A stretch of 53,561 nt of DNA, taken from NCBI GenBank assembly GCA_034190465.1, contig JAXINV010000003.1, forward strand, positions 46,047 to 99,607, given 5' to 3'. Below, piece after piece: positions 6,454-53,559 of the stretch. This stretch comes from Candidatus Asbonarchaeum danakilense. GTDB lineage: Archaea; Nanohalarchaeota; Nanosalinia; Nanosalinales; Nanoanaerosalinaceae. The position numbers and the translations under genes were made by a program. Each line of letters starts with the position of its first letter. Positions within the stretch are counted from its first letter, which is position 1. Under the pieces are notes generated by a model. The model was given only the letters and a program-made list of their open reading frames with translations, was not told the DNA's origin and ran no database searches.

Positions 6454-7512
6454 CTACAGCAGGCCCAGCACCATCGCCCCACGGAACACCGCAAACGCCA
6501 GCAGACCAGCGATGAGCGGTGTCAGCATCCAGGCAGCGATGACACGGCGCGTAATCGCCGTATCGTACAGATCCAACTCATCCTCCTCACGGCGCCTCCG
6601 GTCCTCCTCCGTCCTTTCCTCGATACCAATCTCGTGACTCAGGGGCACCCGCCTCGTCGCCCGGCCCCAGCCGAGCCCGATGACACACATCGTCGCACTG
6701 ATCGCCAGGCTCGCCGGGATGCCCGCCTGACTCAGCAGCGTGATGATCGTCGCCGCGATCAGCTCAACGATCAGCGCCGCCTCCAGCGTCAGACTGGTCA
6801 CCTCCTCACCGATCGTCTCCATCGTCCGGGACCCCAGCAGGAACGCACCGGCACCGATCGCCAGCCCCGCCAGCACAACACCCTGCGTCATCCCGAGCAC
6901 ATCGGAGCCGACCAGCGGCGCCACAGCGTTCGCAGCGTTCGACGCACCCGCCGAGAACGCCATGTAGCAACCTACACCCAGGACCAGCACCTTCGCCCCC
7001 GTGTTCCGGCTGGCGCTTTCGAATTGCAGCACCTCAACGATCCTGTCGTACAGGTAGCGGCCGATCACCGCAGAGATCCAGAACGCCACGATGGCGGAGA
7101 AAACCCACCACATCGCCACTCTTCCCAGCAGCGACCAGTCAAGCACACCGAGGGCCGCCCCCATGCCGACGATCGCACCGACAGCAGTCTCACTCGTGCT
7201 GACCGACACCTTGAGGATGTTGCCGACCAGGATACCGATCCCCGTGAACAGCAGCACCGCGATCGACGCCGTCAGCGTGAAGTACCGGGGCTCGACGAAC
7301 CCCTCACCCAGCGTCTCCACGACGTGGGGGCCGACGATCACACCGCCCAGCATCGCGAACACGGCCATCAGCACCGCCGCCTTGCGCTTGGAGATGATAT
7401 TGCTCCCTGTCGCCGGGCCGAACGCCACACCGGTCGACGAGCCACCGATATTGACCCCGACGAACACAGCGACAAGGATACCGATACCGAAAAACAGGGC
7501 CTCCATACCCAT
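6454..7512 (-). CDS. pit: inorganic phosphate transporter, PiT (PHO4) family
   Basis: GVNIGGSSTGVAFGPATGS and GASNAANAVAPLVG repeats, about 10 TM helices. Confidence 0.85.
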   Translation of the reverse strand: MGMEALFFGIGILVAVFVGVNIGGSSTGVAFGPATGSNIISKRKAAVLMAVFAMLGGVIVGPHVVETLGEGFVEPRYFTLTASIAVLLFTGIGILVGNILKVSVSTSETAVGAIVGMGAALGVLDWSLLGRVAMWWVFSAIVAFWISAVIGRYLYDRIVEVLQFESASRNTGAKVLVLGVGCYMAFSAGASNAANAVAPLVGSDVLGMTQGVVLAGLAIGAGAFLLGSRTMETIGEEVTSLTLEAALIVELIAATIITLLSQAGIPASLAISATMCVIGLGWGRATRRVPLSHEIGIEERTEEDRRRREEDELDLYDTAITRRVIAAWMLTPLIAGLLAFAVFRGAMVLGLL

Positions 7513-7553
7513 CACCTACAGAAATGAAAGAAAAACGGTCGTGACCCGCCCGA

Positions 7554-10411: not shown

Positions 10412-11494
10412 TCAGAACTCCGTCAGGTCTCGCTGCCCGGCAGCGTCCTCCAGCCCCGCCACCCGGAGCCCGAGTCGCCGAAACGCGGCATCCGTCTCGT
10501 CCAGCAACCGGTCCAGCAGGTCTCTGGCCTCCGACAGCAGGATCTCCCCGTCCTGCACGGCCGTCGTGAGCGACGTGGAACGCGTGTGCATCTGCATCCC
10601 CGTGTCGATCGCCAGCAGCACGACGCGGCCGAACACCACCTCGTGCTCCGCCACCTTCGCCAGCAGGTCGTCCGCGAGACCGTCGAGCTCTGTGGCCAGG
10701 CGCTCCCTGCTCCGGGTATCCTCCCTCAGCGTCGTCAGGCAGGAGAGCTGCTGCCGCTCCCGTTCCTCCACCGGTGCATCGTCAGCACCGCGTGCCGTCG
10801 CGATCAGCTCCAGCCCCCGCTGCTCGCCGAACTCTCTGACCATCCGCTGCCGGTCCGCATCCGCAAGCTCCTCAACCGATGTGATACCCAGCTCCTCCAG
10901 GCGTTCGACCGACTTCTCACCGACACCGTGCAGGTCGTCCAGCTCCAACGACCGCATGAACGCCTCCACCTCATCCGGGGCGACGCTCGTCAGACCGCCC
11001 GGCTTGTCCCGGTCCGACGCCATCTTCGCCACCAGCTTGTTCGGCGCCACACCGATCGAGCAGGAGAGATCGAACCGCTCCATGATTCCCTCCTGCACCT
11101 GTTCCGCAACCCTTACTGCCTCGTCGAACGTCGCTGCCCGCTCAGTAATATCGAGGTACGCCTCATCGATCGACGCCTGCTCGACCGTCGCTGCCGCCTC
11201 TTCGAACACCTCCGCGCGGATATCCGCCGAGACCTGGCGGTAGTACTCCTTGTCCACCGGGACGAAGGCCATCCCCTCGTCGGCGTCCTCCGCCACCCGC
11301 TTCGCCCGCTTAATCGGCATGCCCGCAGCGATGCCGAGTTCCCGTGCACCGTAGCTCGCCGTCGAGACCGCGCCCGCGTCCTCCGACCGGCCGGAATAGA
11401 CACATACCACCACCGGGCCGTCGATCCCGCGGCGCCGCTGCTCCAGCGAGGCGAAGAACGCGTCCATGTCCACATGGAGGATGCGGCGAGGCAT
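10412..11494 (-). CDS. dinB: Y-family DNA polymerase IV (DinB/Dpo4)
   Basis: MPRRILHVDMDAFFASLEQRR, SIDEAYLDIT and the HhH-like LDDLHGVGEKSVERL. Start set at ATG 11494. Confidence 0.85.
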   Translation of the reverse strand: MPRRILHVDMDAFFASLEQRRRGIDGPVVVCVYSGRSEDAGAVSTASYGARELGIAAGMPIKRAKRVAEDADEGMAFVPVDKEYYRQVSADIRAEVFEEAAATVEQASIDEAYLDITERAATFDEAVRVAEQVQEGIMERFDLSCSIGVAPNKLVAKMASDRDKPGGLTSVAPDEVEAFMRSLELDDLHGVGEKSVERLEELGITSVEELADADRQRMVREFGEQRGLELIATARGADDAPVEERERQQLSCLTTLREDTRSRERLATELDGLADDLLAKVAEHEVVFGRVVLLAIDTGMQMHTRSTSLTTAVQDGEILLSEARDLLDRLLDETDAAFRRLGLRVAGLEDAAGQRDLTEF

Positions 11495-12269: not shown

Positions 12270-13037
12270 ATGGCCCACACATTCCACGACCTCAACATCC
12301 AGTCCGCCCTCTCCAGCGGCGACGACCCACCAGAGGAGATCGCAGCGCGGGCTGAGACACTCGAACTCAACCGTATCGCCATCTCCGACTACCTCACCGA
12401 TCATGAACACTACGAAGAGCTCGCATCCAAGATCGACGACATCGAGACCGACGTCGACATTCACACCGGGGTCAAGATCCGGGCCGACGACCCGAAAGAA
12501 CTGAACGACAAGATCAGCGCGTTCCGCGACAGGGTTGATGTCGTCCTCGTGCACGGCGGCGACGTCCCAATCAACAGGGCGGCATGCGAGGACGGAAGGG
12601 TCGATATCCTGGCACATCCCGAGTTCAAGCGGAAGGACTCCGGCATCGACCACGTTCTGGCAAAAAAGGCAGCCAGCAACCGTGTCGCCATCGAGCTCAA
12701 CTTCAAATCCGTCCTCAAGACGTACGGCAAACTGCGGTCCCAGATCATGAACCACATGCAGCGCAACATCCGGCTAGCGGAGAAGTACAACGCCCCAATG
12801 GTCCTCTGTTCCGGGGCACGGCGGGTCGAGGAGATGCGTCATCCGCGTGACATGGCCGGGTTCGCCAACTGCATGGGCCTTGACCTATCAGACGCCTTCG
12901 ACCTCGTCGAGAAACACCCCCGCCAGATCATCCAGCGGGTCGAGGAAGCTCATTCTGACGAACAGGTCCGCCCCGGTGTCGAGGTCGAGGAGACCAGCCA
13001 GACAACGCTCGACGAACAGGGTGAAAGCGATGAGTGA
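12270..13037 (+). CDS. rnp3: RNase P protein component 3 (Rpp30)
   Basis: FHDLNI...VDVVLVHGGD...VDILAHPE...AIELNF...MVLCSGA fits the Rpp30 TIM-barrel pattern. AATTTAAC lies 24-31 nt upstream. Confidence 0.75.
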   Translation: MAHTFHDLNIQSALSSGDDPPEEIAARAETLELNRIAISDYLTDHEHYEELASKIDDIETDVDIHTGVKIRADDPKELNDKISAFRDRVDVVLVHGGDVPINRAACEDGRVDILAHPEFKRKDSGIDHVLAKKAASNRVAIELNFKSVLKTYGKLRSQIMNHMQRNIRLAEKYNAPMVLCSGARRVEEMRHPRDMAGFANCMGLDLSDAFDLVEKHPRQIIQRVEEAHSDEQVRPGVEVEETSQTTLDEQGESDE

Positions 13038-13392
13038 CGGCCTCCAGACCATCCCTGCCGCGCTCCGTCGGAAGGAGCGGTACATCCTGTTCAAGATCGA
13101 AGGCGACCACGACTTCGGTCTCGGCGACGTCGTCGACGCGATGTGGAAGGAACTGATCAGCTTCCTCGGCGAACAGCAGGTCTCCAAGATCGACCCGTGG
13201 ATCATGGGCGACCTGTTCAGCCAGGACAAGCAGGTCGGCGGTATCCGGGTCAACAAGGACTACGTCGAAGAGGCACGGACCGCCATCGCCCTCATCGACA
13301 GGATCGGCGACACCAACATCTGCATCCACGTCCTCGGCGTCTCCGGAACCATCGAATCCGCCCGGGACAAGTATCTCCAGGCGCTCGACTAG
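13030..13392 (+). CDS. rnp2: RNase P protein component 2 (Pop5)
   Basis: LRRKERYILFKIEGD...VLGVSGTIESARDKYL is Pop5-like. 8-nt overlap with rnp3. Confidence 0.7.
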   Translation: MSDGLQTIPAALRRKERYILFKIEGDHDFGLGDVVDAMWKELISFLGEQQVSKIDPWIMGDLFSQDKQVGGIRVNKDYVEEARTAIALIDRIGDTNICIHVLGVSGTIESARDKYLQALD

Positions 13393-15643: not shown

Positions 15644-16357
15644 ATGCAGCTAGGCGGAAATGAAAATATGCAGTACGACCGGGCGAAAACGATCTTCAGC
15701 CCAGATGGACGACTGTTTCAGGTCGAGTACGCACGGGAAGCAGTCAAAAAAGGATCAACCTCCCTCGGACTCATCTACGACAACGGCGTCCTCCTCGCCG
15801 CCACGCGGCAGACACCGCAGCTCCAGGCGAGGAACCCGGAGAAGGTCTTCAAGGTCGAAGACCACGCCGCGGTCGCCACATCAGGACTCGTCGCCGACGG
15901 CCGCGTCCTCGTCGACGAGGCGCGTGAACGGGCACAGCAGAACGAGATGACCTACGGCGAGCCCATCCCGACCAACGTCCTCGCCAAGTTCCTCGCGGAC
16001 AGGAAACAGATGTTCACACAGTACGGCGGCGTCCGACCGTTCGGCCTCGCCATGCTGACAGGCGGTGTCAACGACGGCACCCCCGAACTCTACCAGTCCG
16101 ACCCCTCCGGCATCCTCAAAGAATGGCACGCCGTCGCCATCGGACGGGGCGGTGAAGACGCCAAAGAGATCTTCCACGACGAATATGAGGAAAACATGAG
16201 CGAAGACGAAGCCGTCGAACTTGCCGCAAAGACACTTGCACAGGTCGAAGACGCGACCATCGAACTCGAGAACATCGAGATGTGTCTCGTCGACGGCGAC
16301 GACAAGTTCCGGCGGGTCATGCCCGACGACCTGAACGAGCGAGGCATCGAACTCTGA
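15644..16357 (+). CDS. psmA: proteasome subunit alpha
   Basis: YDRAKTIFSPDGRLFQVEYAREAVKKGST. GGTGA lies 7 nt upstream of ATG 15644, and the TATA TTTATAAATA is at 15588-15597. Confidence 0.9.
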   Translation: MQLGGNENMQYDRAKTIFSPDGRLFQVEYAREAVKKGSTSLGLIYDNGVLLAATRQTPQLQARNPEKVFKVEDHAAVATSGLVADGRVLVDEARERAQQNEMTYGEPIPTNVLAKFLADRKQMFTQYGGVRPFGLAMLTGGVNDGTPELYQSDPSGILKEWHAVAIGRGGEDAKEIFHDEYEENMSEDEAVELAAKTLAQVEDATIELENIEMCLVDGDDKFRRVMPDDLNERGIEL

Positions 16358-16363
16358 TCCAGG

Positions 16364-16786
16364 ATGCTGGAGGACCTCAAGCTCTCACATCTCCAGTTCG
16401 CCTTCGTCGTGCTCATCCTGCTGGTGATCGTCGGAGGGATATACTTCTACTCCGACCTCATCAACCGGGCGCAGCGACTGACACGGGAGAACTACGAGTG
16501 TGACAGCGTCGGGTCGCTCCGCACCATCAACCAGAGCATCACCAACAGGAGCCAGGCGCGGCAGTACGTCGCCAGCTACCTGCAGGAACGGAACATCAGC
16601 GTCAGCGCCTCCTCCCTGACAGCGTTCGCACAGGAGGACAGGTACCGTGTCACCGTGCCCGAAGCCCTGTACAACGGAGAGACCTGCACCTGGCGGCGGA
16701 ACGGCACACAGCCGCCACAGTGCCTCGGCAAGTGGTTCGACATCACGAACGGGCGGCTCCTCATGCAGTACGAGGTGCCATGCTGA
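16364..16786 (+). CDS. N-terminally membrane-anchored Cys-containing protein
   Basis: A TM helix (FAFVVLILLVIVGGIYFY) followed by a soluble part with 4 Cys and several NxS/T sites. No family recognised. Confidence 0.5.
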   Translation: MLEDLKLSHLQFAFVVLILLVIVGGIYFYSDLINRAQRLTRENYECDSVGSLRTINQSITNRSQARQYVASYLQERNISVSASSLTAFAQEDRYRVTVPEALYNGETCTWRRNGTQPPQCLGKWFDITNGRLLMQYEVPC

Positions 16787-34538: not shown

Positions 34539-35255
34539 TCACATCCGTGCATCGAACCACGACAGCGCCCGCCGCACCGCCTCGTCGTCCGCTGCATCGC
34601 CGAACCGGTGGCCCTCCCCGTCGAACATCACGTACTCCTTCTCACAGCTCAGTGCATCGAAGAAACGGCGGGACGACCCCGGATCCACCACATCATCCTC
34701 GCCGCCGTGCATGATCAGCGTCGGCACCGCGATGTCCTCCACGATCGCCTCCGTGCTGTACCCGTCAAGATCGTCCAGGAACCGGTCATCCACCCACTTC
34801 CCCGGCAGCTGCTCATACCGGCCGTCCTCCTCGATCGTGCTCCGGATATCGTCCAGCACCGACAGGAACGTCACCGGCGCCCGCAGCGCCAGCGCATCGA
34901 TCCGTTCGTCCCGTGCAGCAGCGTGCAGCGCCACCAGCCCGCCGAAACTCGAGCCGTACACCCCGACCGCTAGGTCCTCCACCTCATCCACGACCCGGCG
35001 GAGATCCGCTATCCTCGTCGACAGCGTCGCCTCGTGGAACTCGCGTGACGACTCGTTGTTCCCCCGGAAATCGAACCTGATCGCGAGGAAGCCCTCCTCC
35101 GCGGCCATCGTGGCGCGGCGCTCATAGCTGCCAGCCTTGTCCGAGCCGAACCCGTGCGCGAACACGACAGCCCGCTCCGGCGCAGCGTCAGGGCGGTGGA
35201 CCACTGCGGCGACCTCCTCCCCGTCGATCCCGAGGCAGCGTTCCTCCGTGCGCAT
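34539..35255 (-). CDS. alpha/beta hydrolase (dienelactone hydrolase / S9-like)
   Basis: VVFAHGFGS, nucleophile elbow GSSFGG, C-terminal GEGHRF. rc CTTAAAAC (35279-35286) lies 24-31 nt upstream of ATG 35255. Confidence 0.7.
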   Translation of the reverse strand: MRTEERCLGIDGEEVAAVVHRPDAAPERAVVFAHGFGSDKAGSYERRATMAAEEGFLAIRFDFRGNNESSREFHEATLSTRIADLRRVVDEVEDLAVGVYGSSFGGLVALHAAARDERIDALALRAPVTFLSVLDDIRSTIEEDGRYEQLPGKWVDDRFLDDLDGYSTEAIVEDIAVPTLIMHGGEDDVVDPGSSRRFFDALSCEKEYVMFDGEGHRFGDAADDEAVRRALSWFDARM

Positions 35256-35330
35256 GGGACCGACTTGGCCGGCCGCCGTTTTAAGCCTCACGGAGCCGGA
35301 TTTTTAAACGTGGAGCGGGAAGGTCTTCCC

Positions 35331-35702
35331 ATGCAGATCGAACGCATCGACGAGGAGGACTTCTTCAGCGGGCTCAACGAACGCATCGCAGACCTCGCCT
35401 TCGAGATCGAGGAGACCGCCAAAAAGATCAAAGAGAACCCCGACTCCTCCACCTACCACATCGACAACTTCTCCTACCCCATGAAGGTCATGCGCCAGCT
35501 CCAGCGTCTCAGGGACAAGGCACGGGCCTTCAAAGAGAACGAGGACGAAGAAGTCGTCTACATCCAGAAAGAAGCCGAAGGCGAGAAGCCCAAGTACTAC
35601 TACCTCCCCAAGAGCGACTACGACAAGAGCAAGCTCTCAGAGATCGTCAAAAAGATGGAGAAACGGGAGGACACCGAAACCGACCTCGGCTACATCAGCT
35701 GA
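35331..35702 (+). CDS. hypothetical Lys/Glu-rich protein (123 aa)
   Basis: TTTTTAAA (35301-35308) lies 23-30 nt upstream of ATG 35331. Confidence 0.5.
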   Translation: MQIERIDEEDFFSGLNERIADLAFEIEETAKKIKENPDSSTYHIDNFSYPMKVMRQLQRLRDKARAFKENEDEEVVYIQKEAEGEKPKYYYLPKSDYDKSKLSEIVKKMEKREDTETDLGYIS

Positions 35703-36411
35703 CAAGCCAGACCAGCAGCCGCGGCAGCACCAGGTAGATCGCCACCGGGACAGCGTACAGCAGCCCGTACCGGTACCGTTTCTCGTACCGCCGCAGCCAG
35801 ACCACCAGGAACGGCAGATTGAAGCACACCAGCCCCACAGCGAACAGCACACCGATATCCGGCGTCCCCGCAACCAGCCGCTCCACCGACGCCTCGACCG
35901 CCCCTTTCTCCGCCAGCGACACCGCCATCCGCCGCAGCCCGACCTGGAGCGCCCTGTCAAGCGAGAAAAACGCAGCAAACAGCGACGACCCGCCGACAGC
36001 GGCCACCACGTACCGGAGCCCGTCTCCAGACACCGCATCGAACACCAGCGCCGCCAGCACACCGGCAGCCATCGACACCGTGACAAGAACCGGGAACGGC
36101 CCCACAGCAGCACTGAAGCCGCTGTACGGCACAAGAAGATAGACAATGACCGCCGCAGGGAACAGGAAGACCACGAAAAGCAGCGAAAAGAGATCCTCCG
36201 CGGCGAACAGCCAGCCAGCGACCGCCAGGCCGAACACCGCGACAGCCGCAGAGAGCAGCCGTCCCGCCAGCACCGCCTTCAAACCGCCGAAAACCGAGAC
36301 AGCAGTGAAAGCGAACAGCGAAACGTACAGCACAGCAGCGAACAGTCGTCCGTGGCCAGTAATCCTTTCATGCAGTGTCCGCAGCCGCTCCCTCAGGTCA
36401 GAACCGTTCAT
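35695..36411 (-). CDS. polytopic membrane protein (238 aa)
   Basis: About 7 hydrophobic helices. ATG 36411 overlaps the upstream gene by 14 nt. Confidence 0.5.
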   Translation of the reverse strand: MNGSDLRERLRTLHERITGHGRLFAAVLYVSLFAFTAVSVFGGLKAVLAGRLLSAAVAVFGLAVAGWLFAAEDLFSLLFVVFLFPAAVIVYLLVPYSGFSAAVGPFPVLVTVSMAAGVLAALVFDAVSGDGLRYVVAAVGGSSLFAAFFSLDRALQVGLRRMAVSLAEKGAVEASVERLVAGTPDIGVLFAVGLVCFNLPFLVVWLRRYEKRYRYGLLYAVPVAIYLVLPRLLVWLVS

Positions 36412-36907
36412 CCAGCTTCTCCTCCCACGTCGACATGATCTCCTCCAGTTCTTCATCCTCGAACCCGGCGAACGCCAGCTTCTCATCGTGGTGGTAGACC
36501 ACATCCTCCTCCGGCAGCTGGAAGAACACATCGTACAGCCCCAGCGCGCCCGTCTTCCTAATCTGCTTGAACAGCCCTTCCAGATCCTTACGCCGGAGAT
36601 AGAACTTCACAGCCGAGCTGTACTCAACATCGTCCTCCCACGGCGTCCCATCCATCTCCGTGTAGGCGAAATCCACGTCCGCCTCCCGCAGGATCGTCTC
36701 GAAGAAATACGGCACGATTGACGCCAGCGACATCTGGAACGCCTCCGGCAGCACGCCCGACTCCAGCACCAGCCACGGGATGATCGACACCCCGTCCTCC
36801 GCGTAGGAGACATCGACCGCGGCGAACCCGTCGTGTTCCTTCCATGCCAGCTCCGGGCGTTCCTCCAGCAGCTCGAACTCGTCCTCGCCGATCACCAGGT
36901 CGGTCAT
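36398..36907 (-). CDS. hypothetical acidic protein (169 aa)
   Basis: ATGA overlap with the RNase Z stop (36904-36907). No motif recognised. Confidence 0.55.
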   Translation of the reverse strand: MTDLVIGEDEFELLEERPELAWKEHDGFAAVDVSYAEDGVSIIPWLVLESGVLPEAFQMSLASIVPYFFETILREADVDFAYTEMDGTPWEDDVEYSSAVKFYLRRKDLEGLFKQIRKTGALGLYDVFFQLPEEDVVYHHDEKLAFAGFEDEELEEIMSTWEEKLDERF

Positions 36908-37824
36908 CCTTCTCCCTCCGGCCTGTGCGGCCTGACCTCGAACTTCTGGCCTTCATCCGCCGCCTCGACGTTCCCGAAGACCTCCTGTGCCTCATCCACC
37001 AGCTTTTGCGTATCGGTATCGAACCTGCGGGAGAAATGCGTCAGCACCAGCCGCTCCACGCCAGCAGCCTTCGCCACTTCCGCCGCCTGGCGGGCAGACG
37101 TGTGACCGTACCGGCCCTCGTCCACCAGCTCCTGTGAGAACGTCGCATCGTGCACCAGCAGGTCCGCATCAGCCGCCGCCTTCACGACGGACTCAGTGTA
37201 CTCCGTATCGCCCGTGTACACGATCTTCCGGCCCGGCATCTCCTCGATCACATCGTCGGGCTCGATCGTCCTGCCGTCGACCTCCACCGTCTCACCGTCC
37301 TTCAGCCGTCCGATCTTCGGCGACGGCTCCAGCCCGAGCTCCTCCATCCGTGCGTGGGACGCCTTCCGCTTCGCATCCTCCTCGAACACGAACCCGACCG
37401 ACGGCACGCCGTGGTCCGTCGCGAACGCCCGGACCTCGTAGTCATCGTCCGCCACCCGGTCGCCCGGCTCCATATCGTCCACAAAGATCTCGTACCGGCG
37501 GTCGAAGTAGCCCAGCTCCAGCAGGCGCTGCGTGAACTCCTCAGTGCCCTCCGGCCCGTAGATATACAGCGGGCGGTCACGACCCTCCATGCCCATCGTC
37601 TGCACCAGGCCGAGCAGCCCCGAGAAATGGTCCGCGTGCCAGTGCGTGATGAACACCTTGTCGATATCCATCAGCCCCAGCCGCTGCCGCATGATCGTCT
37701 TCTGCGCGCCTTCACCGCAGTCGAACAGCATCTTCTCGCCCTGGAAGTTCAGGAAGTTCGCCGACAGATCTCTGCGGGACGTCGGCACAGCGGACGACGT
37801 TCCCAGCGTGTAAAACTCGATCAT
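36904..37824 (-). CDS. rnz: ribonuclease Z (tRNA 3' endonuclease)
   Basis: MIEFYTLGTSSAVPT...NFLNF...LFDCGEGAQ...ITHWHADHFSGL. GGAGG lies upstream of ATG 37824. Confidence 0.85.
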   Translation of the reverse strand: MIEFYTLGTSSAVPTSRRDLSANFLNFQGEKMLFDCGEGAQKTIMRQRLGLMDIDKVFITHWHADHFSGLLGLVQTMGMEGRDRPLYIYGPEGTEEFTQRLLELGYFDRRYEIFVDDMEPGDRVADDDYEVRAFATDHGVPSVGFVFEEDAKRKASHARMEELGLEPSPKIGRLKDGETVEVDGRTIEPDDVIEEMPGRKIVYTGDTEYTESVVKAAADADLLVHDATFSQELVDEGRYGHTSARQAAEVAKAAGVERLVLTHFSRRFDTDTQKLVDEAQEVFGNVEAADEGQKFEVRPHRPEGEG

Positions 37825-37855
37825 GTGCCCGTCCTGCCTCCTCTCGCGAAGCTTC

Positions 37856-38818
37856 TTAACCTTTGTCCCCGTCCGGCTCCACCACGTACAGGTGGCGCGA
37901 AAGGCTCTTATGAACGTAGATCTCGAACCGCGGCTCCAATCCCGCCACATCGTCCCTGTCGCTCATGAACACCACGCTGCCGTCCGTCACACGGCGTGCC
38001 TGCTCCACAAACACCTCTGCGATCTGTTCGCCCTCCTTCCGCGACGCCCGGCCGTACGGCAGATCCGCCACCACCGCGTCGAACGTGCGGTCGACCGAGG
38101 CTGCCAGCTCGTGGACGTCACCCTGGCCTAGCGCCGCCTCCACGCCGTACGCCGCCAGGTTCTCCTTCGCTCCTTCCACCATCTCCGGGTCGACATCCCG
38201 GCCGTGCGGCTCCAGCCCGATCAGTCCCGCCTCCAGCAGCAGCCCGCCAGTGCCACACAGCGGGTCCAGCACCGACTCGCCGCGTGACAGCCCGGCCAGG
38301 TTCACCATCGCCCGGGCCAGCTTCGGGTGCAGCGACACAGGCGACGAATACGGGCGGAGATGGCTGCGTCGTTCCTCAAAGCTCCCCGTATCGATGTCCG
38401 CCACCTGCCGGGTCACGAAGAGCCGGTCCTCTGCCGTCAATGCCCGGAACAGCACATCCGGCTGCTCCAGGTCGACCTGGTTGTCCGTCACCTCCTCGAT
38501 AAGCGCGCCCAGCTCCCCCTCCAGCTCCTCGTCCGGCTCGGCATCCAGTCCGGAGGCACGGACCGCGAACGAGCCGTTGAACGAGAGGTCCAGCTCCTCT
38601 ACCGGTCCCAGGTCATCCCGGCCGCAGACGCACAGCACCTCGCAGACCTCATGGGTCATCGCCAGCCGTGAGAAATCCGCCTGCTCCGCCTCCACAAGGA
38701 CAGCATCCTCAAACGTCTCCTCGACAGTATGGTCCGCTCCATCCGCTTCAAGGACCGTGAGGAACTCCTCGCGGGGAAGCGTCTCGTGTTCACCGGACAA
38801 CAGGGCCAGGAACCGCAT
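37856..38818 (-). CDS. THUMP-domain SAM-dependent tRNA (guanine-N2) methyltransferase (Trm-G10/Trm11/Trm14-like)
   Basis: N-terminal THUMP-like part, then VLDPLCGTGGLLLEA and VADLPYGRAS. rc GTTAAAAA lies 23-30 nt upstream of ATG 38818. Confidence 0.7.
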   Translation of the reverse strand: MRFLALLSGEHETLPREEFLTVLEADGADHTVEETFEDAVLVEAEQADFSRLAMTHEVCEVLCVCGRDDLGPVEELDLSFNGSFAVRASGLDAEPDEELEGELGALIEEVTDNQVDLEQPDVLFRALTAEDRLFVTRQVADIDTGSFEERRSHLRPYSSPVSLHPKLARAMVNLAGLSRGESVLDPLCGTGGLLLEAGLIGLEPHGRDVDPEMVEGAKENLAAYGVEAALGQGDVHELAASVDRTFDAVVADLPYGRASRKEGEQIAEVFVEQARRVTDGSVVFMSDRDDVAGLEPRFEIYVHKSLSRHLYVVEPDGDKG

Positions 38819-38840
38819 ACCCGGAACTTGCCCTGCCAGC

Positions 38841-38868
38841 TTTTTAACAGGCCGGACCTTGTTTAAAC
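38841..38868. promoter_or_regulatory. back-to-back TATA boxes in a divergent spacer
   Basis: rc CTGTTAAAAA (38841-38850) serves ATG 38818 on the minus strand. The palindrome GTTTAAAC (38861-38868) serves ATG 38890 on the plus strand. Both are 22-32 nt from their start codon. Confidence 0.45.
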
Positions 38869-38889
38869 CTGGCACGGGCACTACCCGCC

Positions 38890-39714
38890 ATGCCCGAGAA
38901 GGTCGACCTCAACGTCGTAGGACTGTTCCTCCTCAGCCACATCTACGGCATCACCGCCGGCGTCATCCTGCAGCAGTCATTCCTCGCGCAAGGCACACAG
39001 GTCGTCAACCAGCAGCCTACGTCAGGCATCACCCTGTTCCTCATGATCGGTGTCGCCACCGCGCTCATGTTCCTCCTCTACCAGTTCGAACTCACCGGCC
39101 TGATCAAAGCCTGGCACCTCTCCGCCCTGTACCTGACCGCCCTCATCTTCTTCAGCGTCTTCTTCCCCTTCCTCATCGCTGCAGGACTTGCCACCGCCAC
39201 GTTCGCCATCAAGCACTTCACAAAAGACTACTGGATCCGGAACGTCCTCGAAACCTTCTCCTACGCCGGGGCAGGAGCCCTGTTCGGCACCATGCTCGGC
39301 GTCACCCCCGCCCTCATCTTCATCGGCGTCCTCGCCCTGTACGACATCATCGCCGTCTTCCTCACCAGACACATGCTCGACCTCGTCGAAGGCGGCCTCT
39401 CAACCGGCACCTTCACAGGAATCATCTACCCCAAAGAAGGCAGTTTCGACACCATCTCCACCGATGGGGAGATCAGTGGCGACGGTGAGAACAAGATAGG
39501 TATCGTCGGGGGCGGCGACATCATCGTCCCCATGATGTTCTCCATCTCCCTCCTCAAACTGTACGGCCTCAGCGCAGCAGTCACAAGCTCAGTGTTCGCC
39601 GCCGCAGGCCTCGGGCTTCTCATCTACAAGGCAGAACAGGACACCTTCTACCCCGCCATCCCCATCGTCGGCGGCGCATCAATCATCGGCTGGCTCCTCG
39701 TCCTCGCCCTCTGA
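38890..39714 (+). CDS. presenilin/signal-peptide-peptidase-like intramembrane aspartyl protease (A22 family)
   Basis: LALYDIIAVF (YD), GIVGGGDIIVP (GxGD) and YPAIP (PAL-like), about 8-9 TM helices. Confidence 0.7.
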   Translation: MPEKVDLNVVGLFLLSHIYGITAGVILQQSFLAQGTQVVNQQPTSGITLFLMIGVATALMFLLYQFELTGLIKAWHLSALYLTALIFFSVFFPFLIAAGLATATFAIKHFTKDYWIRNVLETFSYAGAGALFGTMLGVTPALIFIGVLALYDIIAVFLTRHMLDLVEGGLSTGTFTGIIYPKEGSFDTISTDGEISGDGENKIGIVGGGDIIVPMMFSISLLKLYGLSAAVTSSVFAAAGLGLLIYKAEQDTFYPAIPIVGGASIIGWLLVLAL

Positions 39715-40002
39715 GCCGTACGGGAACCGCATCTTCTCGCCGCACTCCTCGCAGGTAATCACCTTCTGCCGGTTGTCCTCATCCAGCCGGACGCGTGCAT
39801 TGTTGCCCGGCACCAGGTAGGCGCCGCAGTCCGAGCAGAACCGCATACGGTACTTCCGCGGCAGCGACAGCGTGTACTTCATCGCGATCTTCCGCGCCAG
39901 CTCCACGTAGCGCTCCGCGCGGTCCGGATGCTCGTCGTAGACCTCCGATGCCTGCTCGAAAAGGATATCGATCCGTTCCCGCGCGATCTCCTCTTCCTCC
40001 AT
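39679..40002 (-). CDS. rnp4: RNase P protein component 4 (Rpp21/Rpr2)
   Basis: IARERIDILFEQA...RYVELARKIAMKY...RMRFCSDCGAYLVPG.NARVRL...ITCEECG. Overlaps the convergent protease gene by 36 nt. Confidence 0.75.
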   Translation of the reverse strand: MEEEEIARERIDILFEQASEVYDEHPDRAERYVELARKIAMKYTLSLPRKYRMRFCSDCGAYLVPGNNARVRLDEDNRQKVITCEECGEKMRFPYGSEGEDEEPADD

Positions 40003-40007
40003 CACGA

Positions 40008-40298
40008 TCACAGCCGGAACTTGTCCCAGAGGATGAAGCCCGCCACCAGCAGCAACGCACCCGCCAGGACCTGCACGACATAGGCTGCCATCGACAGCTT
40101 CGGCATCGCGACCACAGCAGCGGCCGCGAACAAGAAATGTGAGATCGCAAGGCCCGCGATCCCCGCCAGCAGCATCTTCCACTCCAGCGGGAACTTGTCA
40201 GGGGCAAAGAAGTCGCGGTAAAACACGAACGCAAGCACTCCTGCGCCGATCCATGCCAGTGCAACAACACCGTAGAGCACACCCTGTGTCAGCGTCAC
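40008..40298 (-). CDS. three-TM membrane protein, tandem paralog 2 (96 aa)
   Basis: GTGA start/stop overlap with paralog 1. FVFYRDFFAPDKFPLEW compares with FLFADEFFMQEPYAEW in paralog 1. Confidence 0.5.
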   Translation of the reverse strand: MTLTQGVLYGVVALAWIGAGVLAFVFYRDFFAPDKFPLEWKMLLAGIAGLAISHFLFAAAAVVAMPKLSMAAYVVQVLAGALLLVAGFILWDKFRL

Positions 40299-40579
40299 AG
40301 CAGACCACCTGCAGACCGTCGGTACGCCTCAGCGAACCCGGCAAGGGTCAAAACCGCACCAGCAAGCAGCACCGTCGGCACAACCGTCGTCAGGCCGGGC
40401 GGGACGAATGGTCGTATCGCCGTTCCGAGCGCCGTTACTGCAAACCCGAGCGCGACAGCGTACCACTCAGCGTAGGGTTCCTGCATGAAGAACTCATCTG
40501 CAAACAGGAAGAGGAAGATAGCTGCAGCTAAGAACATCACACCTGACCCAACCGAAAGCGTTACGGTGAACCAATCCAT
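40295..40579 (-). CDS. three-TM membrane protein, tandem paralog 1 (94 aa)
   Basis: Start set at ATG 40579 (MDWFTVTLSVG...). The upstream part of the track ORF is Arg/Ser-rich. Confidence 0.5.
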   Translation of the reverse strand: MDWFTVTLSVGSGVMFLAAAIFLFLFADEFFMQEPYAEWYAVALGFAVTALGTAIRPFVPPGLTTVVPTVLLAGAVLTLAGFAEAYRRSAGGLL

Positions 40580-40586
40580 GGATCGA

Positions 40587-40736
40587 TCAGAACTGGGAGG
40601 AGAACATCCGTGCGAACTCCTCCATCTCATTGGTTATCTCGTCAACGACCTCAAAGGTCAGTTCACGGACCATCTGTTCCGTCTGGGGCGACAGATGGTG
40701 CTCGACCTCGACCTTGATCGTCTGATCTTCAGGCAT
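40587..40736 (-). CDS. candidate small acidic protein (49 aa)
   Basis: Below the track threshold. Translates MPEDQTIKVEVEHHLSPQTEQMVRELTFEVVDEITNEMEEFARMFSSQF*. GGAAGTG lies 4 nt upstream. The stop is 7 nt before the next gene in the same operon. Confidence 0.4.
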   Translation of the reverse strand: MPEDQTIKVEVEHHLSPQTEQMVRELTFEVVDEITNEMEEFARMFSSQF

Positions 40737-40798
40737 CGTACACTTCCTTGCGTCGAAAACACACTTAAGGTTTTCCGCAGTCGCCCTACCGCTCCGGG

Positions 40799-41794
40799 CT
40801 ATGACTCATAACGAGCCACCACCAGATCCTTCAGCGTGATGATGAACAACGGTCCCAGGACCAGCCCCTTCACACCGAACACGATCGGCCCTGCAACCAG
40901 TCCAAGGATCATCACGAAGAACGACTCATCCAGCTGCGTCGACCCGATATACGGCAGCAACATCGCCGGAAGCACCCCCAGGAACGTCATCTGGAACACC
41001 ACCAGCCAGAACACCATCCACGGCTGGTTCTGCACAAAGTAGAACACCATCAACGGCCCCGTGAAAATGAACGAACCGATCCCCTCCAAGAACGCCGCCA
41101 GCCCGATCAACAGCCCCCACACCCAGTAGAACGGGATCGGATGACCCATCACAAACTGACCGATCAGATAGTACCCTGCCCCGCCGATGAAACCCATTAT
41201 GATCGCCATCGTCCCGTAAACGACGAAAACATTCCTGATAAGATTCGTCATGGACTTCTTGACATCCAGAAGCATCTCAGCCTCCTCTTTCGGCAGCCGC
41301 TCGATGATCGCGACTACCCTCTCATTGATCCTATCCCCCTCCCTGTACAGGTAGTAGACCACCAGGAAATACGTCACCAGCTGTAGCACCACCCAGGGCA
41401 GCGACGCCGCCACGCTGAACAGCGCCTGCCGCATGTACCCGCTCAGCGCCGAAATCGACTGCGAGATATACTGCGAGACCATCGGAAGATCATACGGTGC
41501 CAGAACCGCATTGACGTTCGTGATGAGGAGCTGGGAGAGGCGGATGACCTCCACAACGACCGTTGATACATTCGAAACCACCAGATACACCCCTGTCGTC
41601 ACCGCCAAGAACAGCCCCGACAACAGACTGAACTCCGCCACCTCCCTGTCCATGAATCGGGACATCCTGCGGACGAGGACGCGGAGCCCGTATGCCGTCA
41701 CCGCCCCGATCACGATAGCATCAGAGAGCGGCATGACGATGTACACCGACGCCGCGAGAAGCACGATACCGAGCACATTCGACCGCCGTCTCAT
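40799..41794 (-). CDS. AI-2E family transporter (PerM/UPF0118)
   Basis: 8-TM layout and family-like length and motifs (GLLIGLAAFLEGIGSFI, LVLGPL). Confidence 0.75.
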   Translation of the reverse strand: MRRRSNVLGIVLLAASVYIVMPLSDAIVIGAVTAYGLRVLVRRMSRFMDREVAEFSLLSGLFLAVTTGVYLVVSNVSTVVVEVIRLSQLLITNVNAVLAPYDLPMVSQYISQSISALSGYMRQALFSVAASLPWVVLQLVTYFLVVYYLYREGDRINERVVAIIERLPKEEAEMLLDVKKSMTNLIRNVFVVYGTMAIIMGFIGGAGYYLIGQFVMGHPIPFYWVWGLLIGLAAFLEGIGSFIFTGPLMVFYFVQNQPWMVFWLVVFQMTFLGVLPAMLLPYIGSTQLDESFFVMILGLVAGPIVFGVKGLVLGPLFIITLKDLVVARYES

Positions 41795-41877
41795 CACCTC
41801 CACCTTAGTCGTGATCGTTTATCAACATACGCAAGACTCTTAACCCAGCACCCGCCATCCATACCCGGTGACCGACG

Positions 41878-42153
41878 ATGATCGACGAGATGGACCTCGG
41901 TATGGTATCGATGCACATCCTCCACCACGGCCAGGACCAGGAACTCGACCCCGGCTGGATGGCGGACGAACTCCAGGAACACGGCTACCAGTATGACCGC
42001 GACGAAGTCGAACGCGCGATGCGGAACCTGGTCGCCAAAGGCCTCATGGAGACCGACGAAGACCAGTACTGGACCACCGATCAGGGCAGCGACTTCCTCG
42101 CCGACATGAAACAGAAAGGCAGCGAACTGCAGGCCGAAGTCCTCCAGGCATAA
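41878..42153 (+). CDS. PadR-like winged-helix transcription regulator
   Basis: MHILHHGQDQELDPGWMADELQEHGYQYDRDEVERAMRNLVAKGLME fits the PadR pattern (iL..L.....hGY.i.....l..Le..Gl). Confidence 0.6.
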   Translation: MIDEMDLGMVSMHILHHGQDQELDPGWMADELQEHGYQYDRDEVERAMRNLVAKGLMETDEDQYWTTDQGSDFLADMKQKGSELQAEVLQA

Positions 42154-42179
42154 AAATATCAGCGACCAGGAACACGGCA

Positions 42180-42584
42180 ATGCTCGGCACACTCCTGCTG
42201 CTCTTCATCGTCCTGCCTGCCACCGACCTCTTCCTCCTCATGAAACTCGCCCAGTGGCTGGGCCTCTACCAGACACTGATCATCATCGTCACCACCGGCT
42301 TCGCAGGCGCCATCCTCTACCGGACCCAGTCCTGGCTCAACATGCGGAAGATGCAGGAGACCATGGCACGCGGCCAGATGCCGGACAAAGAACTCATCGA
42401 CAGCATCCTCATCATCGCAGGCGCCATCCTGCTCGTCACCCCCGGCGTCATCACCGACGGGCTCGGCTTCCTCGTCCTGCTACCGATCACACGGCCGCTC
42501 GTCCGGAAGCTCGTCGTCGCCTGGTTCCGCCGCAAGGTCAACAGCGGCGACATCCAGGTCCAGATCGGTGGGAGCTCATTCTGA
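42180..42584 (+). CDS. FxsA family membrane protein
   Basis: LLLLFIVLPATDLFLLMKLAQWLG...LLVTPGVITDGLGFLVLLP.TR. Confidence 0.7.
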   Translation: MLGTLLLLFIVLPATDLFLLMKLAQWLGLYQTLIIIVTTGFAGAILYRTQSWLNMRKMQETMARGQMPDKELIDSILIIAGAILLVTPGVITDGLGFLVLLPITRPLVRKLVVAWFRRKVNSGDIQVQIGGSSF

Positions 42585-43982
42585 CTCGAAGAACTCCCTG
42601 CACGCCCGGTACGTGTGGTACACATCCGCCTTCGACGACACCTCGTACGGCGAATGCATGCTCAGCAGCGAGAACCCGAGATCCACTACATCCGCGCCGC
42701 GGCGTGACAGGTACTTCGCCACCGTTCCCCCGCCGCCCTGATCCACCTTGCCCATCTCCACAGGGTACCACGGGATGTCTTCCGCGTTCAGCAGCTTCCG
42801 CACCTTCCCGACGAACTCCGCGTGGGCGTCGTTCGCAGCGTACTTCCCACCGCGACCCGTGAACTTGACAAGGGAAACGCCCTGGCCCAGGTTGATCGCA
42901 TTCTTCTGGTCGTGCACATCCTGATACGTCGGATTCACCGCCGCAGCCACATCCGTCGACAGCGCCTCAGTCCTGTCGAACGCCTGGTAGACGCCCGAAT
43001 GCGGCCGGTCGACGCCCTCAAGCTCCAGCAGCTCCGCGATGAACCGTTCCAGGAACTCGCTCTGCGCCGAGGTGTTCCCTTCACTGCCGATCTCCTCCTT
43101 GTCAAAGAACCCGGCGATCGCCGTCACGGACGGATCAGCGTCGAAGAACGCCTCCATCGTCGTGAACGACAGCCCCTTATCGTCCTGGCCGTAGGCCGCG
43201 ATCATCGAACGGTCCAGGCCCAGGTCTCGGGGCTCCGTCGCCGGCACCGCCTCGAACTCCGCAGATGCCAGGTCCTCCTCCGTCAGACCGTGCTCCTCGT
43301 CCAGGTACTGCAGGATCTGGAGCTTCACCGCGTTCTCGACCTCATCGTCGTCGACCGGCATGTTCCCGACCACCAGGTTCAGTTCCTCGCCCTCGATCGC
43401 CTCCTTCAGCTCCTTCTGCAGCTGGTCCTTGCTCAGGTGCGGAAGCAGGTCAGGTACCAGGAACACCGGGTCATCGCCGCCCTCACCGATCACGATCTCG
43501 TGGCTATCACCGTCACCGTCGACCACGACCCCGTGCAGCGCCAGCGGCACGTTCGCCCACTGATACTTCTTGATACCGCCGTAATAATGCGTATCCAGCA
43601 TCGCCAGGTCAGCATCCTCGTACAGCGGCTGCTGCTTCAGATCCAGCCGCGGCGAATCCAGGTGGGCCACCGTCATCCGGATGCCGTCCAGCAGGCCGTC
43701 ACCGAGCTCCGCGAGCAGCACCTGCTTCCCGCGGTTGACAGCGTACACCTTCGTCCCCTGCTCGTATTCGTCGACCTCGTCCAGCGGCACGAAGCCCTCA
43801 TCCTCCGCCCGCTCGACGATCTCGCTGGCCGCCTCGCGCTCAGTCTTCGCCTCCGCGAGGAACGTCTTGTACTCCTCCGCCAGCGACTCCAGCGTCTCCT
43901 CGTCGATATCCTCGAGCCATCCTGATTCCGCGTTGAACGACAGTTCTTCCTCCAGCTCCTTCAGTTCAGATTCCTCTGCCAT
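42576..43982 (-). CDS. M18 family aminopeptidase (aspartyl aminopeptidase-like)
   Basis: AHLDSPRLDLKQ, GQDDKG, EEIGSEG and SMHSPYE are M18 signatures. Confidence 0.8.
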   Translation of the reverse strand: MAEESELKELEEELSFNAESGWLEDIDEETLESLAEEYKTFLAEAKTEREAASEIVERAEDEGFVPLDEVDEYEQGTKVYAVNRGKQVLLAELGDGLLDGIRMTVAHLDSPRLDLKQQPLYEDADLAMLDTHYYGGIKKYQWANVPLALHGVVVDGDGDSHEIVIGEGGDDPVFLVPDLLPHLSKDQLQKELKEAIEGEELNLVVGNMPVDDDEVENAVKLQILQYLDEEHGLTEEDLASAEFEAVPATEPRDLGLDRSMIAAYGQDDKGLSFTTMEAFFDADPSVTAIAGFFDKEEIGSEGNTSAQSEFLERFIAELLELEGVDRPHSGVYQAFDRTEALSTDVAAAVNPTYQDVHDQKNAINLGQGVSLVKFTGRGGKYAANDAHAEFVGKVRKLLNAEDIPWYPVEMGKVDQGGGGTVAKYLSRRGADVVDLGFSLLSMHSPYEVSSKADVYHTYRACREFFESE

Positions 43983-49332: not shown

Positions 49333-49749
49333 ATGGACATCTACTTTTGCGGCTCCATCCGGGGCGGGCGGGACGACACCTCCCTGTACCAGCAGATCAT
49401 CCAGCTGCTCCAGCAGCACGGCACCGTGCTCAGCGAACACATCGGGGACGAAAACGTCGAGGACGACGGCGAGCAGGGCATGACCGAGGACGAGATCCAC
49501 AGCCGGGACCTGGACTGGCTACAGCAGGCCGACGCCATCGTCGCGGAGGTCACCACCCCGAGCCTCGGTGTCGGCTACGAGATCGCCAAGGCAGAGGAAT
49601 GGGGCATCCCGATCCTCGCACTGTTCCGGCCCGGCAGCAGTCACGCACTGTCGGCCATGGTCCGTGGCAGCGACGGGACACGTGTCCACGAGTACAGCGA
49701 CATCGACGAACTCGCACAGCCGATAAGCGACTTCCTCGACCAGGCATGA
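49333..49749 (+). CDS. 2'-deoxynucleoside 5'-phosphate N-hydrolase (DNPH1/Rcl-like, NDT superfamily)
   Basis: IYFCGSIRGGRDD...LDWLQQADAIVAEVTTPSLGVGYEI is near-identical in pattern to animal DNPH1 motifs. Confidence 0.75.
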   Translation: MDIYFCGSIRGGRDDTSLYQQIIQLLQQHGTVLSEHIGDENVEDDGEQGMTEDEIHSRDLDWLQQADAIVAEVTTPSLGVGYEIAKAEEWGIPILALFRPGSSHALSAMVRGSDGTRVHEYSDIDELAQPISDFLDQA

Positions 49750-52083: not shown

Positions 52084-53343
52084 ATGGGACCGATCGACTA
52101 CCTCGGTGCATGGCGGGACCGGCTGTGGCTCCGCTACAACGGCATCAATCACGAGATTGAACTTGACGACACGCTGGACGAGGAGCTGTCCGCCTCGACC
52201 CGGCGGTCGATGGATCGGGCCGTGACCGCGCTGGACGGGATCGTCGACGACTACGACCCGGCGATCTACAAGGTCGAGGAGCTGGACGACGACACACCCG
52301 CCGTCGGACGGTACAAGGGCCGGGACGGCGGCCGGCCGCTGATAAGGATGGTTCCGGACGCGGCCAACTTCCCGGCGATCTGGGCGCACGAGCTGGGCCA
52401 CGATATCACCGCGACGCTGGACGTTCTTCCCGACGACTCCAACCTGGTGACGACCACGTTCGACGAGATGGCCGCCTATCTGGCGATGTTCGAAGTGGCG
52501 GAGCGGACAGGCGACACGCCGCTGCACCTGAGCGGGCCGTTCAGGATCAGCCATGCGGATGAATGGCAGCGGCTTCGCGACGGTGTCGAGCTGGACGACA
52601 TCCTTGCACCCGTCGAGGGAGCATTTCCCGACAGCTATGACGCGGTCCTGGACGCGGCAGCCGACATCGACCACCTGCATCCCGGGACCGCGGGACTGGA
52701 GCGGGAGACGTCGATGGTCGGCGCCTACCTGGGCAACCCTGCTGCAGCAGACCTCCAGGCGCTGGCAGTGGTCGACGACCGGGAACGGGACGAGGCGGTC
52801 GCGATGTTACAGGAGGCGTACGTCGAACGTGACGACCCGCTGCAGCGACGAGTGCAGGACACGGTCGAGGACTACCTCGAGGAAACGTTCTCCGGCCGGC
52901 ACGCGGTCGATATGCGGGAGCAGCACGACGATGTGACCGGGACCGTGGAGCAGTACGAGCAGGACCGACTCGACGAGGTGTACGACGACGTGATGGCGGA
53001 CCTGGTCGCCGAGACCCTGGATGATGCCCTGGCGGTGGAACGGCCCGATGTAGAGGACGCTGAGGACATCGTCGAGATGCTTGGCGGTGAGACCTACGGC
53101 AGCGGGGAGCACGGCTACGACGACTACATCGACCTGCCGCACCCGGTCGGCTATGAGCTGGCGCAGGAGCTGTACCGTGAAGGGACAGGTATCGCCGACA
53201 TCGTCGACGATCCGGAACCGTACGCCGATCTTGCGGAGGAAGCGCTCGTCCACACGGTGGACCACGGTCTGGACGGCGGTAGCACGAACAGCTACGATAT
53301 CGGTGAGGTGCTGGACCGACACGAACAGCGGAGAAGTGAATAA
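52084..53343 (+). CDS. acidic protein with HExxH zinc-metallopeptidase-like motif
   Basis: AIWAHELGHDI followed about 25 residues later by FDEMAAY (gluzincin-like spacing). The rest is unrecognised. Confidence 0.5.
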   Translation: MGPIDYLGAWRDRLWLRYNGINHEIELDDTLDEELSASTRRSMDRAVTALDGIVDDYDPAIYKVEELDDDTPAVGRYKGRDGGRPLIRMVPDAANFPAIWAHELGHDITATLDVLPDDSNLVTTTFDEMAAYLAMFEVAERTGDTPLHLSGPFRISHADEWQRLRDGVELDDILAPVEGAFPDSYDAVLDAAADIDHLHPGTAGLERETSMVGAYLGNPAAADLQALAVVDDRERDEAVAMLQEAYVERDDPLQRRVQDTVEDYLEETFSGRHAVDMREQHDDVTGTVEQYEQDRLDEVYDDVMADLVAETLDDALAVERPDVEDAEDIVEMLGGETYGSGEHGYDDYIDLPHPVGYELAQELYREGTGIADIVDDPEPYADLAEEALVHTVDHGLDGGSTNSYDIGEVLDRHEQRRSE

Positions 53344-53350
53344 AAAAATA
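53341..53350 (+). promoter_or_regulatory. TATA-like box for the tRNA gene
   Basis: TAAAAAAATA lies 29-38 nt upstream of tRNA position 1 and overlaps the stop codon of the preceding CDS. Confidence 0.4.
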
Positions 53351-53378
53351 GGGTGCTACATCGAACATACGGCATCAA

Positions 53379-53559
53379 GCGGCCTTGGTCCAGTGGCTAA
53401 ACCTCTGCGAGGTTCATGCCTCGAGGTAAACCCTCCCGGGTTTCCAGAGTGGCTAAGACTCCGGCCTTCCATGGCGGGTCAGCCGATATCTGCACGGACC
53501 GGCTGGGACAAGCCTGCTGGAGACAGCCGGCGACCCGGGTTCAACTCCCGGAGGCCGCA
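53379..53559 (+). tRNA. tRNA-Gly(UCC) with two introns (exons 53379-53400, 53457-53471, 53525-53559)
   Basis: Acceptor GCGGCCT/AGGCCGC, T arm CCGGG-TTCAACT-CCCGG, anticodon stem CCGGC/GCCGG, loop CU-UCC-A|intron|A. Canonical BHB at 37/38. C2-G71, G3-C70 and A73 are present. The spliced length is 72 nt. Confidence 0.8.

Follow-up and report, generated by a model that had tools for sequence, protein, structure and literature searches.

Archaeal transfer RNA (tRNA) genes with multiple introns have a literature of their own, to which Sugahara is said to have contributed in 2007 and 2008. Introns bounded by bulge-helix-bulge (BHB) motifs are found at 20/21, 22/23, 25/26 and other non-canonical positions, sometimes beside a canonical intron (Yoshihisa 2014, PMC4090602), and multi-intron tRNAs are listed for Crenarchaeota, Nanoarchaeum equitans, Methanopyrus kandleri, M. 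thermautotrophicus, Korarchaeum and ARMAN-1/2 (Fujishima & Kanai 2014, PMC4033280). DPANN lineages mostly have alpha4-type splicing endonucleases (EndA) with an extra L3 loop, enzymes that occur alongside a larger number of disrupted tRNA genes (Kaneta et al. 2018, PMC5829648). Nanohaloarchaeota are not on the 2014 list (PMC4033280); Nanohaloarchaea appear in the survey figure of one of these papers, and we found no text there describing their tRNA introns. Here we describe a tRNA locus at 53379-53559, the last 181-nucleotide (nt)-long feature of a 53,561-nt stretch of nanohaloarchaeal DNA (the window, whose whole-length numbering is used throughout). We read it as a doubly spliced, probably working tRNA-Gly(UCC) gene, with one intron at the canonical 37/38 site and another at 22/23 in the D arm, and we put the probability of this reading at roughly 0.8.

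The pre-tRNA-Glu(UUC) of M. kandleri has the same architecture, a D-loop intron at 20b/21 with a relaxed HBh' motif together with a canonical intron at 37/38 (PMC5829648). The window gene differs in specifying Gly and not Glu, in the position of its D-arm intron (22/23 and not 20b/21), in belonging to a DPANN halophile and not a hyperthermophilic methanogen, and in the 9-nt direct repeat around its first intron. Splicing of the M. kandleri precursor was shown in vitro, with the canonical intron reported to leave first (PMC5829648), whereas for the window gene splicing is predicted from sequence and the same order is predicted by folding. The multi-intron tRNAs of Thermoproteales and other Crenarchaeota, N. 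equitans and ARMAN-1/2 have the same kind of BHB-bounded non-canonical introns, including some at 22/23 (PMC4033280, PMC4090602); like the window gene, they often carry a 37/38 intron as well and are missed by standard finders. With lengths of 56 and 53 nt, the window introns exceed the typical median of 12-25 nt (PMC4090602), and in contrast to Crenarchaeal-type systems the window gene has no sign of intron transposition and no second copy in the window. The gene structure is already known in kind, since both the 22/23 position and double-intron tRNAs are in the literature (PMC4090602, PMC4033280, PMC5829648). The sole unusual detail is the 9-nt direct repeat.

The gene lies on the + strand and consists of three exons and two introns. 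Exon 1 (53379-53400) holds tRNA positions 1-22, with the 5' strand of the acceptor stem, U8, G9, the D-stem 5' strand GUCC, the D loop and A22. It is followed by intron 1 (53401-53456, 56 nt), which is non-canonical, lies at 22/23 in the D arm and has a relaxed hBHBh' motif. Exon 2 (53457-53471) holds positions 23-37, namely the D-stem 3' strand GAC, U26, the 5' strand of the anticodon stem, C32, U33, the anticodon U34 C35 C36, and A37. Intron 2 (53472-53524, 53 nt) occupies the canonical 37/38 site with a strict hBHBh' motif, and exon 3 (53525-53559) supplies positions 38-73, with A38, the 3' strand of the anticodon stem, the variable loop CGAC, the T arm, the 3' strand of the acceptor stem and A73. 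An initial annotation, made from the letters alone, had already proposed this fold, and we find it to hold base by base: a 7-base-pair (bp) acceptor stem GCGGCCT (53379-53385)/AGGCCGC (53552-53558) with discriminator A53559, a T arm CCGGG-TTCAACT-CCCGG (53535-53551), an anticodon stem CCGGC (53461-53465)/GCCGG (53526-53530), and an anticodon loop that reads CUUCCA, then 53 nt, then A53525. In a script check, every pair it had listed was Watson-Crick or G.U, the single mismatch being C53402/U53450. The CCA end is not encoded; TT follows the discriminator, and there the window ends. The pairs C2-G71 and G3-C70, together with A73, C35 and C36, are glycine identity elements for glycyl-tRNA synthetases of the archaeal/eukaryal type, and all are present in the sequence.

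Excising both introns leaves a 72-nt tRNA-Gly(UCC), the 72-mer with a 4-nt variable loop that the initial annotation had predicted, and this product is exactly what related genomes encode without interruption. A pattern made of the T arm and the 3' strand of the acceptor stem, run against one genome per prokaryotic species, returned 23 loci, 14 of them Methanococcales-type tRNA-Gly(GCC) and nine tRNA-Gly(UCC). Five of the nine come from metagenome-assembled genomes (MAGs) named Nanohalarchaeota (QJJ-9, NHA21-24) and four from bins labelled 'uncultured archaeon'. Three intronless genes (L005, L009 and L023, from Ca. Nanoanaerosalina / Nanohalarchaeota MAGs) are 100% identical to the predicted 72-mer; exon 1 equals their first 22 nt, and the exon 3 region is 100% identical to theirs over 36-37 nt. 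Three further intronless genes (L012, L017 and L010) differ at a few positions, including a compensatory change from C-G to U-A in the anticodon stem. Two others, L001 and L006, have a 37/38 intron only, of 136 nt and 187 nt, respectively, and the spliced product of L006 is the same 72-mer. Aligned with its orthologues (alignment A1), the window gene is an orthologue plus exactly two insert blocks. A mismatch in the D stem, C13/A22, is common to the orthologues and is thus not a defect of this copy. The comparison with related loci, which the initial annotation had named as a check, matches in the product; as for the introns, the 37/38 site is filled in L001 and L006, and the D-arm intron is absent from all eight of the other nanohaloarchaeal-type tRNA-Gly(UCC) genes compared.

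The canonical introns of the two relatives have features of their own. Both are very long (L006, 7633-7891; L001, minus strand, tRNA 3' end at 158-182), and the 187 nt of L006 exceed the archaeal range of 11-129 nt (PMC4090602). Their BHBs are relaxed, with three of four central pairs in L006 and an inner helix of one pair in L001, and the intron fold of L006 is very stable (-81.9 kcal/mol). The 37/38 introns of the window gene, L001 and L006 differ in length and have no detectable sequence similarity to one another. An Rfam search in E-value mode on the L001 and L006 introns and on window positions 35000-42700 gave nothing meaningful.

Standard tools pass over the unspliced gene. Default ARAGORN called no tRNA in the whole window and Rfam at gathering thresholds gave no match there; a permissive Rfam search yielded a tRNA-model hit of only 19 bits, a partial match over 53461-53559 in the unspliced sequence. 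The initial annotation had proposed running a finder such as ARAGORN over the locus and scoring the spliced 72-mer on the Infernal tRNA model. ARAGORN calls the 72-mer tRNA-Gly(tcc), and when intron 1 alone is removed it reports tRNA-Gly(tcc) with a 53-nt intron at 37/38, written i(38,53). On Rfam RF00005, where the gathering score is 29, the genes of L005 and L009 reach 64.5 bits, and since the 72-mer is identical to them this is also the score of the spliced product. The same programs miss the intron-bearing orthologues L001 and L006. In a hand-written scan of the window for a T arm with a matching acceptor stem, this locus alone was plausible as a tRNA. Other calls were set aside: a 'tRNA-Asp(gtc)' with a 630-nt intron at 15815-16541 on the minus strand, from the intron mode of ARAGORN, is a false positive inside the proteasome alpha gene (15644-16357), and further intron-mode calls at 7084-7524, 10613-10778 and 36214-36491 lie within open reading frames (ORFs) or are low-quality models.

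Both introns are bounded by BHB motifs at junctions that restore the tRNA. We coded the BHB as 4 bp between 3-nt bulges on opposite strands, with outer and inner flanking helices, and set the cut after the second base of each bulge. For intron 2 the script bears out the textbook hBHBh' of the initial annotation: all four central pairs form (53466-53469/53519-53522), the bulges are 53470-53472 and 53523-53525, the outer helix is the 5-bp anticodon stem, the inner helix has seven contiguous pairs (53473-53479/53512-53518) and the cuts fall after 53471 and 53524. For intron 1 the relaxed motif at 22/23 was likewise recovered, with its pairs as listed: four of four central pairs (two G-C, two G.U), bulges AAA and AAG, a 3-bp outer helix (A14-U26, G15-C25, U16-A24) and an inner helix with five of six pairs, the first, C53402/U53450, being mismatched. 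The pairs of two additional hairpins, proposed within intron 1 at 53408-53423 and 53428-53443, were also confirmed. When each intron was shuffled with the exons kept, an equally good BHB at a product-preserving junction arose in 230 of 200,000 shuffles for intron 1 (1.15e-3) and in 245 of 200,000 for intron 2 (1.2e-3).

Several unrelated kinds of element were considered for the inserts. Self-splicing group I or II introns, whose ribozyme cores run to hundreds of nt, were rejected, the inserts being 56 and 53 nt long and lacking Rfam matches, and a snoR4 match at 53329-53404 was noise (19 bits against 60; E = 2.1). On direct reading, neither intron contains the C box RUGAUGA or the D box CUGA of the guide RNA type found in haloarchaeal tRNA-Trp.

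Upstream of the gene lies an A/T-only box of 12 nt, AATAAAAAAATA (53339-53350, + strand), a candidate archaeal TATA/BRE element separated by 28 nt from the mature 5' end. It shares positions 53341-53343 with the TAA that closes the upstream ORF. Across the 53.5 kb of the window just 15 stretches of 9 nt or more consist of A and T alone, this box among them, and most of the others are intergenic. Orthologous genes have similar A/T boxes upstream at comparable distance, and we take AATAAAAAAATA to be a putative promoter. The upstream ORF itself (52084-53343) encodes a very acidic protein of 419 amino acids in which Pfam recognizes no domain. Of 5.8 billion clustered proteins just two are homologous to it (40% and 30% identity), and the gene resembles an orphan of the lineage.

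Together, the product identical to orthologues, the 64.5-bit score, the BHBs at product-restoring junctions and the A/T box support a tRNA-Gly(UCC) gene with introns at 37/38 and 22/23. We propose a model in which the gene would be transcribed from the A/T-rich box about 30 nt upstream and the 5' leader trimmed by RNase P. EndA would cut within the BHB bulges, after 53400 and 53456 (22/23) and after 53471 and 53524 (37/38), an RtcB-type ligase would join the exons, and the CCA end would be added. In this model the canonical intron would be removed first. The order is suggested by predicted folds. The D-stem strand GGUCC (53387-53391) is complementary to GGACC in intron 2 (53497-53501). Whether intron 1 is present or has been taken out, the predicted fold of the precursor is dominated by this pairing, which competes with both BHBs. 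With intron 2 removed, the minimum free energy (MFE) structure becomes a cloverleaf whose D arm bears the intron-1 helix; as this cloverleaf is predicted only after intron 2 has gone, canonical-first splicing seems the likelier course.

Central to the status of intron 1 is the exact 9-nt repeat that flanks it. The intron is made of a unique 47-nt core (53401-53447) and a second copy (53448-53456) of the D-loop string AGTGGCTAA, whose first copy ends exon 1 (53392-53400, + strand). These are the only two occurrences in the window, against an expected count of 0.07. As the initial annotation had noted, the junction can slide: because of the repeat, ten junction positions give the same product, and a BHB forms only at one of them, 53400|53401 with 53456|53457. 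The first copy provides the outer strand AGU, the central strand GGCU and the bulge bases AA of BHB 1. Since GGCU pairs with itself through two G.U, the two copies between them supply the central helix along with the AA|N bulges on both sides, while the outer helix AGU/ACU comes from the exons alone. What is left to the core is the inner helix (53403-53407/53445-53449), beside its two perfect hairpins.

A number of observations weigh against our reading of a doubly spliced gene. When both repeat copies were kept and the 47-nt core was shuffled, an inner helix of at least five of six pairs appeared in 3.5% of cases; given the repeat, BHB 1 is therefore weaker evidence for selection than the frequency of about 0.1% would suggest. 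The motif is relaxed: its 4-bp helix includes two G.U, its outer helix has only 3 bp and is in competition with the D stem, and the inner helix opens with a mismatch. Once thresholds are loosened, 13 BHB-like arrangements can be drawn within the 181 nt, so geometry alone is not very specific. The MFE structure of the full 181-nt precursor (-89.2 kcal/mol) contains neither BHB, the fold constrained to both lies 11.8 kcal/mol higher (-77.4 kcal/mol), and the pairs of the BHBs have a probability of about 0 in the ensemble. The local folds of the introns have only moderate z-scores of about -2 (intron 1, -20.5 kcal/mol, z = -2.2). Pfam domains of EndA (PF01974/PF02778) and RtcB are absent from the 50 window ORFs scanned. 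Lastly, scans of genomes, metagenomes and viral contigs found no second genome with the D-arm intron, and BHB 1 consequently lacks support from covariation.

The scans behind this last point took several forms. A gapped pattern for any 38-68-nt insert in the D arm of the tRNA had no matches in metagenome contigs, and neither the exon 1/intron 1 junction nor an intronless pattern from the D arm to the anticodon matched any viral contig. The 15-mer GCGGCCTTGGTCCAG gave at least 120 unrelated matches in metagenome and viral collections, with no tRNA among the matches listed. Homologues of the two genes adjacent to the tRNA are few and distant (40-52% identity) and have no tRNA nearby on their contigs. 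The proteasome gene led to nanohaloarchaeal contigs with conserved synteny, but these stop about 10 kb away from that gene, short of the expected tRNA position.

The most serious competing account, which we nevertheless regard as unlikely, is that the locus is a disabled copy: a 47-bp insertion with a 9-bp target duplication would have gone unspliced and left a pseudogene, a second and intact tRNA-Gly(UCC) serving the cell. The exact repeat around the insert would fit such an event, as would the absence of the insert from all eight orthologues, which marks it as derived. The BHB tells less against this account than it might, since with the repeat in place 3.5% of shuffled cores satisfy what remains of the requirement, and the motif is relaxed and missing from the global MFE structure. 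The exons speak differently. They show no decay and are 100% identical to those of orthologues from genomes with a G+C of 0.37-0.41, against 0.60 here. The promoter-like box is kept, and the BHB forms at the very junction that restores the tRNA, where cleavage would be expected from an endonuclease that recognizes BHBs without needing the mature domain. Nanohaloarchaeal genomes are small, moreover, and their tRNA genes are usually single-copy.

Much less probable is an artefact of assembly or sequencing, in which the 56-nt block would be a mis-join by the assembler or a local duplication. In its favour, the contig, 137,665 nt long, is of the metagenome type and no independent assembly of the locus was retrieved. 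A 9-nt repeat, however, is far below the k-mer size of assemblers, and the core of 47 nt is unique, has a high degree of structure, with two perfect hairpins and a closing helix, and is unrelated to the rest of the window. The same organism also occurs in two other sequencing runs, though this concerns another gene only.

A single long intron at 30/31, giving either a tRNA-Arg(CCG) with an 89-nt intron or, once intron 2 is removed, a tRNA-Gly with a 57-nt intron, is reported by ARAGORN -i on the unspliced sequence and deserves almost no credence: no BHB lies at these junctions, the products match no orthologue whereas the two-intron product matches exactly, and the tRNA-Arg version was rejected as a poor model, since its 92 nt fold with a D stem of 2 bp and an anticodon stem containing three G.U, and leave a long variable region unpaired.

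If the gene is doubly spliced, as we favour, the repeat invites a proposal for how intron 1 arose. Because the repeat supplies most of BHB 1, DNA that inserted here and duplicated 9 bp would come almost ready for splicing. Since all relatives also lack the insert, a recent gain is suggested, in which 47 bp inserted into the D loop would have duplicated the 9-bp AGTGGCTAA and so created a BHB, leaving the gene spliceable at once. We offer this scenario tentatively, as a possibility with the odds somewhat against it. A partial parallel is the tRNA-Thr(GGU) of Caldiarchaeum subterraneum, which, like the window gene, has a derived intron in the D-arm region (24/25) accompanied by directly repeated stretches of the tRNA (Sugahara et al. 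2012, PMC3293823). What is repeated in that case is a 5' fragment of the tRNA, across a 1.9-kb element that encodes a recombinase, and intron gain has been linked to integration of a mobile element. The window gene, by comparison, has just a 9-nt repeat and a 47-nt core, with no recombinase or element nearby. Of the marks of a transposable element or MITE, the direct repeat is present, and the one inverted repeat, CUCUG/CAGAG, straddles the boundary between core and 9-mer. No other copies of either intron were found in the 53.5-kb window, in nanohaloarchaeal loci, in phages or in plasmids, and a comparison of the 3' half of intron 1 with exon 1, as a possible degenerate copy, gave no significant similarity beyond the 9-mer.

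The genomic setting identifies the host lineage. The window has a G+C of about 0.60 and a very acidic proteome, with Asp and Glu making up 18-28% of most proteins. Its Pfam content (RNase P p30, Rpr2, proteasome alpha, SBDS, deoxyhypusine synthase, XPB, PEPCK and pyruvate dehydrogenase E1) is that of an archaeal chromosome. All named best homologues of the proteasome alpha protein (60-86% identity) are from Candidatus Nanohaloarchaeota, Nanohaloarchaea or Nanohalobium, and a long gene order is common to the window, the contigs of those homologues and L017. Those MAGs that are named and encode the identical tRNA fall in the phylum Candidatus Nanohalarchaeota within Nanobdellati (DPANN). The window is nanohaloarchaeal, and the homologues, the gene order and the exon identity agree on this; the suspicion of the initial annotation that it is not from Halobacteria was right. 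The annotation had further called the doubly spliced gene lineage-diagnostic. The outcome, a nanohaloarchaeal/DPANN window, bears this out, on the strength of exons and proteins; the D-arm intron itself, missing from all eight relatives, is not diagnostic.

Other features of the window merit a brief record. Three RNase P protein subunits are encoded: p30 at 12270-13037; a probable Pop5/Rpp14 directly downstream, in the C-terminal part of the ORF at 12847-13392, the p30-Rpp14 pair being arranged as in L269-L274; and Rpr2/Rpp21 at 39679-40182. Neither RNase P RNA nor any other Rfam family was detected in the window. Over positions 1-52000 the GC skew of the + strand is negative in every 2-kb bin (-0.03 to -0.26), with genes on both strands, and the cumulative skew falls monotonically to -4.0. 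As a side effect of this skew, BHB-like motifs are about nine times commoner on the minus strand, which is G-rich; the first 20 kb hold 454 of them there and 50 on the + strand. Two separate genes resemble nucleoside 2-deoxyribosyltransferases (PF05014), at 858-1847 and 49333-49749. The PF05014 protein of 138 amino acids is found in identical form on Logan contigs of 1.4-1.6 kb from runs SRR28304476 and SRR28304477, which indicates that the same organism is present in other public samples.

Current understanding of archaeal tRNA splicing is not overturned by this gene. Should the scenario of intron gain by insertion and duplication prove true and general, it would provide a concrete route for 'introns-late' gain and could explain the recurrence of non-canonical introns in the 20-23 region, just after the conserved G18 G19. 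There is also a practical consequence. Because default ARAGORN and an Rfam/Infernal search at gathering thresholds miss the gene, nanohaloarchaeal genomes of this kind would be scored as being without tRNA-Gly(UCC), which bears on estimates of genome completeness and on claims of host dependence in DPANN. Beyond this, the locus adds Nanohaloarchaeota to the lineages with multi-intron tRNAs, and it implies that the nanohaloarchaeal splicing endonuclease may accept a relaxed BHB outside the anticodon loop.

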